Of a stretch of 64,000 nucleotides of DNA, positions 61,127-64,000 are shown in pieces. The position numbers and the translations under genes are program-made. This DNA comes from Nitrospirota bacterium (lineage in GTDB: Bacteria; Nitrospirota; Thermodesulfovibrionia; Thermodesulfovibrionales; Dissulfurispiraceae), in assembly GCA_963790025.1 (NCBI GenBank), contig CAWBMP010000004.1:1248001-1312000 (forward strand). The letters run 5' to 3'. The notes under the pieces were generated by a model that made no database searches, was not told where the DNA came from, and saw nothing but the letters and a program-made list of their open reading frames with translations. Each line of letters begins with the position of its first letter. Within the stretch, counting starts at the first letter, position 1.

Positions 61127-62059
61127 GGGGTCAGGTCTATAATGTTTACCTTTTTGCATGACCTCGAACAACCCGGCTTATATATGTAAAATGCAAATTG
61201 AGATGATTTGCGATTGCCCGCTGAGTATATCCAAATTCGTAGACAGCAGTAATTATTTTGCTGTCCCTCTGACTTTTATCCATTAATATGTTTTTGCTGA
61301 ATATGCTATCCAACCCGGGTCTGTTGACATACCGTTGCGTTTTGGATATTTCGGCAATATTCTTATGTTTATTGAGATGATGATTCAGGCTATCAACGAA
61401 TTCTTCTTTTCCGAGGACTACCTGGCCCTTAACAGCATTCCAAATACTTTCTTGTTCGATGCCTGATTTCACAAACTCACTGTATTTTCTTTCTGCCTCA
61501 CTCCTTTCCTCGCTGAATTGCCCTAGTATCCAGTCAGTGGTAAGACACGGATGAGGCGTTTTCTTTCCTGCGGTTTCCCCGCAGCTGGACCATTTCCAAT
61601 CTTCAGGCTGTTCAACTATGTGCGCACGTACCGGATTCAGCACAACATATCGGCACACTTCAAGAAGATGACTGTCTTTCTGGATCACAATAGCCTTATA
61701 TCTACCTTGCAACAGATGACCTGATCGGTTGCGCTTTTTGTTGTAAGCCTGGCTGTAGACACTGTTTAATTGCCTCATCCCTATGGACAGATTTCCATCC
61801 GGCGTTTCAATCATCAAATGATAATGGTTATCCATCAGACAGTAGGCATGGCATAGCCAATTGTACCGTCTATTGATATCGACAAGAATCCCAAGGAATG
61901 TTTCACGGTCAGCGTCATCCCTGAAAATTGACTTCTTCTCGTTTCCACGAGAAGTAACATGATATACAGCGCCAGGATATTGTATGCGCAACGGTCGAGC
62001 CATAACAGCCAATTTATCAGATTCATCATGAACATGTAAAACATTATAGACCTGACCCC
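61127..62059 (-). mobile_element. TIR-flanked Y1 tyrosine transposase element (TIRYT/RAYT-like)
   Basis: Perfect 21-bp IR GGGGTCAGGTCTATAATGTTT at 61127-61147 and 62039-62059. Confidence 0.85.
61146..62003 (-). CDS. Y1 HUH transposase (RAYT-like) with C-terminal HTH
   Basis: MARPLR..YHVTSRGN, YCLMDNHYHL (HUH), HLLQGRYK, RYVVLNPVRA, WSS; C-terminal TQRAIANHLNLHFTYISR. Confidence 0.9.
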   Translation of the reverse strand: MARPLRIQYPGAVYHVTSRGNEKKSIFRDDADRETFLGILVDINRRYNWLCHAYCLMDNHYHLMIETPDGNLSIGMRQLNSVYSQAYNKKRNRSGHLLQGRYKAIVIQKDSHLLEVCRYVVLNPVRAHIVEQPEDWKWSSCGETAGKKTPHPCLTTDWILGQFSEERSEAERKYSEFVKSGIEQESIWNAVKGQVVLGKEEFVDSLNHHLNKHKNIAEISKTQRYVNRPGLDSIFSKNILMDKSQRDSKIITAVYEFGYTQRAIANHLNLHFTYISRVVRGHAKR

Positions 62060-62181
62060 ATTTCCACATTTCCACATACCAATATTCTTGCCTTTTCTTT
62101 CAATTTATTGGTATGTGTCCCTATTTTTTTAGGGCTAACGAGTTTTTAATAAAACTTACCCACGACAAACAAACTGCAAAA

Positions 62182-63165
62182 CTAGGCAAATAGTAGTACG
62201 AATTGTTCAAACAGCTCCCTATGAAAGTGATTGATCATTTCCTCTCTCATGACCGTTAGTGCCTCAAAAGGAGTGAGTTTCGGTTTGTAGGATCGCTCAG
62301 CAGTCAATGCGTCATACACATCCGCAATACAGCAGAGTCTGCCATATACATGGATTTGATCGCCTTTGAGTCTGCGGGGGTACCCATTGCCGTCCTCCCT
62401 CTCGTGGTGCTGCATCTCGATAATCTTACACTCCTCCGTTAATTGGCCTGCCTCGGAAAGGATCTTGTAGCCCTGATACGGATGTGTTCTCATTTTCTGT
62501 ATCTCTTCTTTTGTAAGTCTTCCTGGCTTGTTGATTATCCCTGGATCAACACGGACTTTGCCGATATCGTGCAGGAAAAAGCCCGCTCCCAGTTCATGCA
62601 TATCATGAGCATCGGAATCTTTAAACAGTACCTTTGAAAGCATAATCGATAAAACTCCGACGTTTACCGAATGGGTGTACGTATAAAAATCATGAGATGT
62701 GATCCTCAATAAATAGTTCGCCGTAGCATCGTCCGAAATGAGAAGGTCCACGATTTCAGCAATTTCCTCTTTTGCTATTCGAATGTTTTCGGCCTTGGGG
62801 TCCGACAGCAGCTTGCCCATAAGTTCAACGGTCGACTTATATACCACTCTTGCTTTTTTCTCCGGAGCAAGTGTCCTGCTGTGAATGGCGTCTCTTAATT
62901 CATCCGAAACCAGTTTCTCAGTCTCCCACTTTTGAGGAGGCGCCAAATCCTCGTCTCCATGGCTCATTGATCCAAAATCTTCAAACGGCATTCCCTTGGA
63001 GCTATTTATATTCACCTCATCAAACCCGCCATCGATGATTTTTGCTATTTCAGAATGGTGTTTAATTGTAAATTCGTTTTTCAGGAAGGGATGATCAAGC
63101 CACGAAACAGGCAAGACGACGTGCATACCGACCTTCAACTCTTTTACCTTTATCCTCTGGATCAT
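62182..63165 (-). CDS. HD-GYP phosphodiesterase with DUF3391-like N-terminus
   Basis: LKVGMHV..W..HPF; HSVNV, LHDIGK, HHEREDGNGYP, ADVYDALT..RSYK. Confidence 0.9.
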   Translation of the reverse strand: MIQRIKVKELKVGMHVVLPVSWLDHPFLKNEFTIKHHSEIAKIIDGGFDEVNINSSKGMPFEDFGSMSHGDEDLAPPQKWETEKLVSDELRDAIHSRTLAPEKKARVVYKSTVELMGKLLSDPKAENIRIAKEEIAEIVDLLISDDATANYLLRITSHDFYTYTHSVNVGVLSIMLSKVLFKDSDAHDMHELGAGFFLHDIGKVRVDPGIINKPGRLTKEEIQKMRTHPYQGYKILSEAGQLTEECKIIEMQHHEREDGNGYPRRLKGDQIHVYGRLCCIADVYDALTAERSYKPKLTPFEALTVMREEMINHFHRELFEQFVLLFA

Positions 63166-63264
63166 ACAGCTATTTTAAACTATACCAGCATAAATTAAAA
63201 AAAGTTCTGATTTGTCCCGATTCGTTTTTGTCTGAGAGAAAAAGTAGGGTCTACCATAGGATTT

Positions 63265-63460
63265 ATGCAGATGACTATGGCAGCTTTATTCATGTAAGAT
63301 ATGCTTAACGGGGGTGTGGCTTGTGGGGTCAGTGGCCTGTTCATTCAGGCTCACTTGAGTCTGAAATGCCGCCTCCGTCATCTGCATCATCCTCAAAAGG
63401 GTCGACCGGGATGGTGCCAAATGTGGCTCTGTAAGTAGACGAGACCTGAGGATGATAATC
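63265..63460 (+). ncRNA. Putative IS110 bridge RNA
   Basis: Two stem-internal loop-hairpin units; perfect stems ATCATCCTCA/TGAGGATGAT and ATGCAGATGAC/GTCATCTGCAT. Confidence 0.6.
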
Positions 63461-63480
63461 TTGTCTGCAAAGGAGACTAC

Positions 63481-64000
63481 ATGAAAAAAGATGATCCCCT
63501 CGAACTGCGTGTAAGCGTCGATATTGGCTGCCGCAGTCACAACGTTGCAATCGGCCTATCCAGCGGTGAAGTCCTCGATGAATTCTCAATCGTGCATGAA
63601 CCTGAAGGGTTCCGGCAATTCTTCTGTCGCATCGAGAAGCAGGAGCAAAGGTTTAGTTGTCCCGTTGCCGTAGCAATGGAGGGCTTCAACGGCTACGCAC
63701 GTCCGCTGGACACGCTCGTTCGGGCCCGCAATTATCGCCTCTTCAATATCAACAATCTCAAGCTTGCTCGATTCAAGGAGATATTCCCCGGTGCCGCGAA
63801 GACCGATGCAATCGACGCAAGGAAAGGACTGGAGCTTTTTCAGCTTCGAGATCATCTGCCGATAGCCAAGGATGTGCTGCAGGAGGTACGCAAAACGCCG
63901 CGGGACAACGACATTCTAAAGCGGCTATCACGGCGCCGACGTCGTTTGGTCGATGAGCGAGTACGGGTAGTAAACAACCTACAGGCCGATCTTCACGCTG
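63481..64000 (+). CDS. IS110-family DEDD recombinase/transposase (partial)
   Basis: RBS AAGGAG; MKKDDPLELRVSVDIG.., VAMEG, AKTDAIDA, RLSRRRRRLVDERVRVVNNL; open to the window end. Confidence 0.92.
   Translation, partial: MKKDDPLELRVSVDIGCRSHNVAIGLSSGEVLDEFSIVHEPEGFRQFFCRIEKQEQRFSCPVAVAMEGFNGYARPLDTLVRARNYRLFNINNLKLARFKEIFPGAAKTDAIDARKGLELFQLRDHLPIAKDVLQEVRKTPRDNDILKRLSRRRRRLVDERVRVVNNLQADLHA

Follow-up and report, generated by a model that had tools for sequence, protein, structure and literature searches.

The window analyzed here is a 64,000-nt stretch of a contig from a Nitrospirota bacterium, and the features of interest lie on its plus strand near the right-hand edge. An open reading frame at 63481-63999 (+) encodes the N-terminal 173 amino acids of an IS110-family DEDD transposase and is open at the window end. 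It matches the Pfam family PF01548 (DEDD_Tnp_IS110) with an E-value of 8.4e-21 and the NCBIfam entry NF033542, 'IS110 family RNA-guided transposase', with 64 bits, a fragment score below the full-length cut-off of 140 bits; the full-length homolog P0001, which is 91% identical to the fragment in the window, exceeds that cut-off with 166 bits. Among the 120 matches listed, the homologs are 75-91% identical over the window fragment, 119 of the 120 also carry the C-terminal Tnp domain PF02371, and the full-length proteins are about 399 aa long. Residues D14, E67, D109 and D112 are invariant in an alignment of 12 sequences (the window fragment and 11 full-length homologs of about 399 aa), and all four DEDD residues are present in the visible, open reading frame of the window. 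A Shine-Dalgarno-like AAGGAG (63470-63475, +) stands 5 nt before the ATG, and its GGAG is conserved in the leader alignment described below. The leader itself, the segment upstream of this N-terminal part of the gene, spans 63252-63480, so that the left end of the element measures 229 nt in the window.

The element occupies the upstream region of a gene for an HD-GYP-type protein (domains HD_5, DUF3391 and HD; 62182-63165, -), whose start lies 85 nt away from the insertion point and which is directed away from it. Two genes from the IS110 element, at 61146-62075 (-), there is a 309-aa open reading frame with an IS200-like Y1 transposase domain (PF01797, E 7e-12), which may be a RAYT-like or IS200-like gene. 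Searches of the window with blastn, tblastn and a covariance model returned no second copy of the element. No match was obtained in the DNA search of a plasmid collection with the element or in the E. coli genomes searched by DNA, and the protein search of the plasmid collection reached at most 27.3% identity among the 15 matches listed, with all 1,114 records below 60%. Members of this subfamily are found in metagenome-assembled genomes of many phyla, including Nitrospirota, Thermodesulfobacteriota, Acidobacteriota and Proteobacteria.

Scanning genome_contigs with the full-length homolog P0001 as the query gave 80 loci with transposases 57-91% identical to P0001, and the leader is common to these 80 related loci. 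The loci closest to the window are L001, also from a Nitrospirota genome, with a leader 96% identical to that of the window, and L002 and L003, with leaders about 91% identical. The last two lie on one contig and share about 220 nt of left flank, so they do not count as independent insertions; the left flank of L001 (L001:3620-3753) holds a fragment of a related transposase gene in inverted orientation, 76-80% identical to parts of L002-L004. Both ends of the element are fixed in the relatives: the left-end motif G-TC-TACCAT is found in 76 of the 80 loci and the right-end motif GGGATGT-TC-A in 72, most of the misses being loci cut by contig ends, and copies within the same genome diverge exactly at these positions. 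The ungapped mapping of boundaries failed for some of the groups with indels (CBCXVS, 'delta', the right side of CAVSWL, and CBDFLV), and the ends were set there by motif. In 14 loci the leader alignment starts exactly at window position 63247, that is, 3 nt to the left of the core dinucleotide, because the GGG of the target is itself conserved. From core to core the relatives measure 1,438-1,810 bp, with 1,462 bp and a right end of about 32 nt in L001, the closest relative with both ends; by that length the element in the window would reach roughly 700 bp past position 64000.

The leader folds better than expected. For 63244-63480 the folding z-score is -3.71 and for 63265-63458 (+) it is -4.53, and in each case none of 200 shuffled sequences folded as well. 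The minus strand, with z = -5.24, folds well too; G-U variants, of which the leader alignment has many, favor the plus strand over it. We evaluated a hand-drawn structure of 40 pairs on an alignment of 42 distinct leaders, 217-253 nt long, and found that 92.8% of the paired cells can pair, against 37-45% when the partners are slid by 1-3 columns, that 21 of the 40 pairs have changed on both sides, and that none of 500 shuffles reached any of the five measures. The pairing conservation supports two modules, each made of a stem, an internal loop and a hairpin, which is a trait of bridge RNAs, and both modules also appear in the minimum free energy (MFE) fold of 63265-63458, the segment that begins at the inferred RNA start. 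A covariance model, which had been proposed as a check on the sequence-only reading of this DNA, was built from the 42 leaders. It gives one strong hit in the window, at 63249-63483 (+), with 226 bits (the next-best hits have E-values of 0.32 and 7.5), and it places the RNA directly upstream of the transposase gene and on the same strand in 79 of the 80 loci, including 37 loci that were outside the model. The sole locus where it does not, L058, has no DNA upstream of the gene. A scan of 62900-64000 against Rfam at E-values up to 10 returned no family, so the assignment of the leader to the bridge RNAs rests on the analysis made here.

The first module, the target-binding loop (63310-63376, +), has basal stems at 63310-63315/63371-63376 and 63318-63320/63368-63370 and a distal hairpin at 63332-63339/63346-63354; its basal helix is 99.7% paired and its hairpin helix 94.5%, with 4 and 7 pairs, respectively, changed on both sides. 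The second, the donor-binding loop (63388-63454, +), is recognized by its pairing conservation and in the MFE fold. It has a basal stem at 63388-63394/63448-63454, a second stem at 63400-63403/63443-63446 and a distal hairpin at 63416-63419/63424-63427, and the three helices are 100%, 95.2% and 99.2% paired. The earlier claim that two loop-hairpin units lie upstream of a DEDD recombinase thus agrees with the conserved pairing and with the PF01548 match. The same reading had pointed to an extra 11-bp stem and to a variant architecture, and this helix, which we call H1, was recovered as well: its 5' strand ATGCAGATGAC (63265-63275, +) is a perfect 11-bp complement of its 3' strand GTCATCTGCAT (63377-63387, +), which lies between the two modules; both strands pair in the MFE fold, 79% of the H1 cells are paired across the 42 leaders, and 6 of its 11 pairs have changed on both sides. 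H1 creates a three-way junction from which the 5' hairpin and the target module branch. The 5' hairpin region (63276-63308, +) is variable, with poor sequence conservation and a local hairpin in the MFE fold, and it is the counterpart of the 5' stem-loop of IS621.

Two helices drawn by RNAalifold were not retained. The first, between columns 1-6 and 218-223, was read as RNA-DNA guide pairing and not as an RNA helix because the inferred RNA start is downstream of column 6; the second, which pairs AUCAUCC with the left donor guide sequence GGGAUGG, was replaced by the 100% paired basal stem to the GGAUG farther downstream. The 5' strand of the donor basal stem (63388-63394, CAUCCUC, preceded by AU) is able to pair with either GAGGAUG (63448-63454) or the guide sequence GGGAUGG (63407-63414), and the pairing of AUCAUCC with GGGAUGG may represent a second conformation, in which the donor guide would be masked. 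Some leaders (L028, L040, L044, L046, L047, L051, L053, L060, L061, L066 and L076-L080) are 280-450 nt long, compared with about 235 nt elsewhere. Their additional sequence follows the left end and precedes the target-binding module, 5' of the conserved target-loop anchor, and contains long inverted repeats in several of them (for example L028 and L061); the sequence of the downstream modules is kept.

With only 173 codons in view, the copy in the window might be a dead remnant, a left end with a 5' gene fragment that lacks a functional right part, in which case the RNA features would be fossil. Such decay does occur among the relatives, where L003, L021, L032, L052-L054, L058, L064 and L076 are truncated or frameshifted and where a stray partial left end (L015:7434-7599; 21 bits, E 0.0024) lies about 2.2 kb downstream of the L015 element. 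The reading frame in the window, however, stays open with its four DEDD residues, and the leader is both nearly identical to that of the full-length L001 and scored across the full covariance model, so that we regard a remnant as unlikely, though it is the alternative that keeps the most weight.

The position of the core dinucleotide is not given by the junctions alone, since both GT and TC are present at both of them. It was read from unoccupied sites of relatives whose transposases are 58-63% identical to P0001, all in one genome, a Methylococcales metagenome-assembled genome from which 12 copies were fetched; these are not sites of the window's own element. Seven of these copies are inserted in one repeat and read aaaggtg-TC-TACCAT...GGGATGT-TC-agtcattg(cat), and six unoccupied copies of the repeat in the same genome have only one TC, reading ..gtg/atgTCagtcattg. 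The empty repeat has one TC and a GT core needs one T more, so the core is TC (63250-63251, +), duplicated at both junctions within the conserved G-TC-TACCAT, and it lies one base to the right of the GT at 63249-63250 that had been called from the window. Two further loci agree with the TC core: L078 has a second, empty target 25 nt downstream (gggtactgTCaagtt), and L059 retains an uninterrupted arm of a 23-bp palindrome (caatggggTCagactcgattgaa). The relatives have TC at both junctions and a single TC in the empty sites, and they lack terminal inverted repeats.

A model with the same element and RNA and the GT register would have the target as N-GT-TCAG, the circle junction as ...GGGAT-GT-CTACC and the empty allele of the window as GTAGG-GT-TCAG. 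It accounts for several matches, as GT also stands at both junctions (G-GT-CTACC at the left, GGGAT-GT-TCAG at the right), the right donor guide with its next base, GUAGAC, is complementary to the whole of GTCTAC, and the left donor guide agrees with CGGGATG as far as the G of that GT. The unoccupied sites read ...gtgTCagtcattg, where a GT core would demand ...gtGTTCAGtcattg, one T more; the second target of L078 (tactgTCaagtt) and the palindrome arm of L059 (ggggTCagact) speak for TC, and a TC core lets both target guides pair with the entire core, whereas GT leaves the right target guide with a mismatch at its first base. On the empty sites we rejected the GT register, which we consider very improbable. 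The short motifs on which it was built are all where they were said to be, namely GTAGGGT at 63244-63250, GTCTAC at 63249-63254, TAGGAT at 63257-63262, GTGGGGT at 63323-63329, GGGATGGT at 63408-63415 and GTAGAC at 63435-63440; the off-by-one call follows from the bases at the handshake positions discussed below, which extend the complementarity in the integrated state to GTAGAC/GTCTAC and to TTCAG. The element had likewise been expected to finish with GGGATG-GT followed by a flank resembling TTCAG, and both strings are indeed present in the relatives, where they abut directly; the GT between them is absent, so that detail fails. The right end in the relatives reads ...CGGGATGT-TC-AG, and that of the window is predicted to be ...CTTGAAAATTCCAGCGGGATGT-TC, followed by a flank of AGACT or a close variant. 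The TC core model predicts ...AAAAGTAGGG-TC-AG..., with one TC, as the uninterrupted allele of the window and ...GGGATGT-TC-TACCAT as the circle junction.

The strands of the first loop correspond to the DNA flanking the insertions. The left target guide GUGGGGUC (63323-63330, +) has the same sense as the left target half plus the core and matches GTAGGGTC (63244-63251) at 7 of 8 positions; within the left target half itself, the host DNA GTAGGG (63244-63249, +), 5 of 6 positions agree, so that the window has one mismatch to its own guide. The right target guide AGUCU-GA (63358-63364, +) is the reverse complement of TC-AGACT. The window shares this guide with L001, whose right flank is TC-AGACT, and the guide predicts that right flank for the window as well. 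Taken from the window only, these matches are too short to serve as proof, and it is the comparison with the relatives that shows they are not due to chance. A permutation test of guides against flanks covered 67 distinct insertions, among which 38 distinct guide pairs occur. On the left the mean number of matches was 5.22 of 8 (4.35 after shuffling), and on the right it was 4.03 of 7 (2.90 after shuffling), with none of 10,000 shuffles reaching the observed values. The signal is located at positions -6 to -1 of the left target and +1 to +5 of the right target, so the strands of the first loop covary with the left and right target flanks in the published polarity. Individual loci illustrate this tracking: the left target guide equals the locus's own flank in L036 (AGCGGTC), in L076 (GTACTGTC) and in L077 and L079 (CTCTGTC), it follows the flank in L056/L057 (TTTGGGTC), and guide and flank are the same in L048-L050 (TCAGAGTAA) and in L027 and L029 (TCAAGTCT). 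The repeat of the Methylococcales genome has one left-target mismatch to the guide, and L003 carries a right target guide of the window type, yet its right flank is matched at 2 of 5 positions only.

The idea that the leader is a structured 5' untranslated region controlling translation or stability of the transposase, with the junction matches being due to chance or to RNA-RNA pairing in read-through transcripts (GTCTAC with GTAGAC), draws on the Shine-Dalgarno site and ATG directly after the structure and on the intramolecular helix that RNAalifold draws between columns 1-6 and 218-223, but it is barely credible, since a helix in cis cannot explain why the left target guide covaries with host DNA outside the element or the right target guide with DNA past its far end, about 1.4 kb away, since the probable start near 63265 excludes GTCTAC from the RNA, and since the architecture and pairing polarity fit the published bridge-RNA rules. 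From 63250 to the window end, the DNA very probably belongs to an IS110-group insertion sequence, as its left part, and encodes a bridge RNA that most likely works as published for IS621; the earlier reading had likewise proposed an IS110 left end whose target and donor loops match the insertion junction. Of this explanation, the analysis demonstrates the assignment to the family, the conservation of the fold, the position of the boundaries and of the TC core in the relatives, and the covariation of the target guides with the flanks and of the right donor guide with the left end.

Sites resembling the target are not enriched in the window: the 13-nt pattern with up to 3 mismatches occurs 10 times, compared with 11.07 expected. 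Several of the insertions (L059, L069 and other Methylococcales loci) lie in palindromic, REP-like repeats; the palindrome at L059 has 23-bp arms, and the repeat agtcattgcat...atgcaatgact is occupied seven times in one genome. The right flank of the window, if it reads AGAC as predicted, would form a 6-bp inverted repeat with GTCTGA at 63231-63236.

The second loop relates to the ends of the element in two different ways. The right donor guide GUA-GA (63435-63439, +), complementary to TC-TAC at 63250-63254, has covaried with the left end: the guide has A instead of G in the 7 loci that read TAT rather than TAC at the left end, and in no others, which gives 35 CG pairs, 7 UA pairs and no broken pair, that is, 7 of 7 compensatory changes. 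The left donor guide CGGGAUG (63407-63413, +) is assigned by its 7-nt identity to CGGGATG in the right ends of the relatives, which ends 1 nt before the core. Both the guide and the right end are nearly invariant and offer no covariation to evaluate, and the assignment is by identity and position only; as aligned, the guide has two mismatches, at the last left-donor base and at the second core base (CGGGAUGGUG vs CGGGATGTTC). The rules used for guide pairing, with the core included in each pairing, are those of Durrant et al. (PMC11208160), as given in the available part of that text.

One base in each loop may act as a handshake guide. The available text of Hiraizumi et al. (PMC11208158) describes the handshake guides of IS621 as the bases just 3' of the right target guide and of the right donor guide; once strands have been exchanged, they pair with one or more terminal bases of the non-cognate left half, and they are permitted no pairing with the cognate DNA. 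The corresponding bases here would be A 63365 (+) in the target loop, which from the sequence would pair with the last left-donor T and not with the last left-target G, and C 63440 (+) in the donor loop, which would pair with G 63249, the last base of the left target half, and not with the last left-donor T. The latter base is invariant in the 42 leaders.

The first bases of the element, which form the right donor, also contain a likely -10 hexamer. TACCAT (63252-63257, +) is proposed as the -10 of a circle-junction promoter on conservation and spacing, and among 49 distinct sets of ends this hexamer is TACCAT in 40, TATCAT in 7 and another sequence in 2. A -35 hexamer had been anticipated in the right end, and the relatives provide one, a hexamer containing TTG (most often TTGAAA) that stands 15 nt before the core and keeps its TTG in 44 of 49 distinct right ends. 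At the joined ends the spacing from TTGAAA to TACCAT is 17 nt (15 right-end bases plus TC), compared with 22 nt to TAGGAT, the hexamer at first suggested as the -10, which makes TACCAT the likelier of the two. The circle junction would create the promoter TTGAAA-17 nt-TACCAT, although these bases also serve donor recognition, which confounds the evidence from their conservation. No complete sigma-70-like promoter for the integrated state was found in 63100-63600. The RNA probably starts near 63265, the first base of H1 and about 7 nt after the -10, and the bridge RNA encoded in the 229-nt left end is likely to be a plus-strand RNA of about 190 nt.

The proposed mechanism draws on several parts that we infer, namely transcription, the promoter, the left donor guide assignment, the handshake roles, and the activity and right end of the copy in the window. 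Excision would join the right end to the left end over the TC core, and this joining would set the right-end -35 TTGAAA at 17 nt from the left-end -10 TACCAT, allowing an RNA to start near 63265. The RNA would then fold as a target-binding module and a donor-binding module. In the donor module the guides CGGGAUG and GUAGA would hold the joined ends ...CGGGATGT-TC-TAC..., and the DEDD/Ser recombinase would swap strands at TC, where the handshake bases A 63365 and C 63440, one per loop, would pair only with the incoming non-cognate strand. The route of excision and insertion in such elements, whether cut-out or copy-out and by single or double strands, is debated in the available portions of three reports (bioRxiv 10.64898/2026.08.31.748434, bioRxiv 10.1101/2025.10.25.684509 and PMC13626964).

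Since 2024 bridge RNAs have been known as the means by which IS110 elements choose their sites, and the NCBI protein family already carries the name 'RNA-guided transposase'. The element in the window is an ordinary, expected member of the bridge-RNA class described in that year.

Among the closest known systems is IS621 of E. coli (Durrant et al. 2024, PMC11208160; Hiraizumi et al. 2024, PMC11208158; PDB 8wt6), and as far as the accessible parts of these reports describe it, IS621 also encodes its RNA in a long left end and has a short right end, two pseudo-symmetric modules of stem, internal loop and hairpin, left guides for target and donor of the same sense and right guides that are antisense, flanking a 2-nt core, a first loop that varies and a second that is conserved, in each loop a single handshake base for the non-cognate strand, and a -35 in the right end with a -10 in the left end. 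The core is CT there and TC here, where the target has 6+2+5 nt, and the left donor guide in the window, as aligned, leaves part of the core unpaired, unlike that of IS621. In IS621 the parts of the RNA follow one another, nt 1-33 forming a free 5' stem-loop and nt 34-98 the target-binding loop, which a linker separates from the donor-binding loop of nt 110-177 (PMC11208158), whereas the 5' end of the RNA in the window pairs with the linker between the modules through H1; this is the one architectural difference documented against those parts of the reports. The available text of Durrant et al. (PMC11208160) already reports that bridge-RNA structures are diverse across the family, and the H1 layout, in agreement with the variant architecture suggested from the window, was therefore placed within the known class.

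By sequence comparison, the protein in the window is only distantly related to that of IS621. A single-sequence search of PDB chains with the transposase found nothing, and a profile of 12 sequences matched the C-terminal domains only, those of IS621 with an E-value of 1.4e-5 and, second-best, those of ISCro4 (PDB 9t56) with 3.2e-5. ISCro4 and CazIS110-1 (bioRxiv 10.1101/2025.10.25.684509), IS110-group systems that have likewise been examined by structural or biochemical work, belong to the same family and, as described in the accessible parts of these sources, have the same two-loop RNA logic, without a close sequence relation to the element studied here. The IS1111 group shares the DEDD recombinase superfamily and RNA-guided target choice, as stated in the available text of PMC11208160; its seekRNA or bridge RNA lies in a long right end, with subterminal inverted repeats of 7-17 bp, whereas the element in the window has its RNA in the left end and a right end that measures about 32 nt in the relatives.

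Some left flanks of the relatives contain tandem copies of the 8-mer made of the left target and TC. This is the case in 6 of 73 distinct left flanks (L014, L023, L025, L031, L049 and L053), where one or two extra copies are spaced by 13-19 nt within 13-33 nt upstream and end exactly at the core; L053 has acacagatAGGGGTC three times in its left flank. Among 66 right flanks, only that of L078 has an extra copy of the core and right target, and there the duplication covers the complete target. In the 850 nt farther upstream, all loci taken together, the same 7-mers are found 5 times. In the window's own flank the tandem left-target repeat is absent. For CazIS110-1, the available text (bioRxiv 10.1101/2025.10.25.684509) reports an abundant RNA with only the target-binding loop, and H1 would neatly bound a module of this kind. 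It is conceivable, if rather doubtful, that the 5' hairpin and target loop bounded by H1 form a self-contained domain that acts or is released as a target-loop-only RNA, and that strand transfers at the left junction only would then explain the tandem copies of left target plus TC. If this were true, the tandem repeats in the left flanks would be the scars of a partial reaction that is undescribed in genomes.

The practical worth of the analysis lies in the exact ends, the TC core, the 6+2+5 target code, the handshake bases and the conserved closing helix that it provides for a subfamily far from IS621. Those who mine genomes for new tools gain a well-aligned natural series of guide and target pairs, and the subfamily offers a test case for whether a helix that encloses the target module matters.
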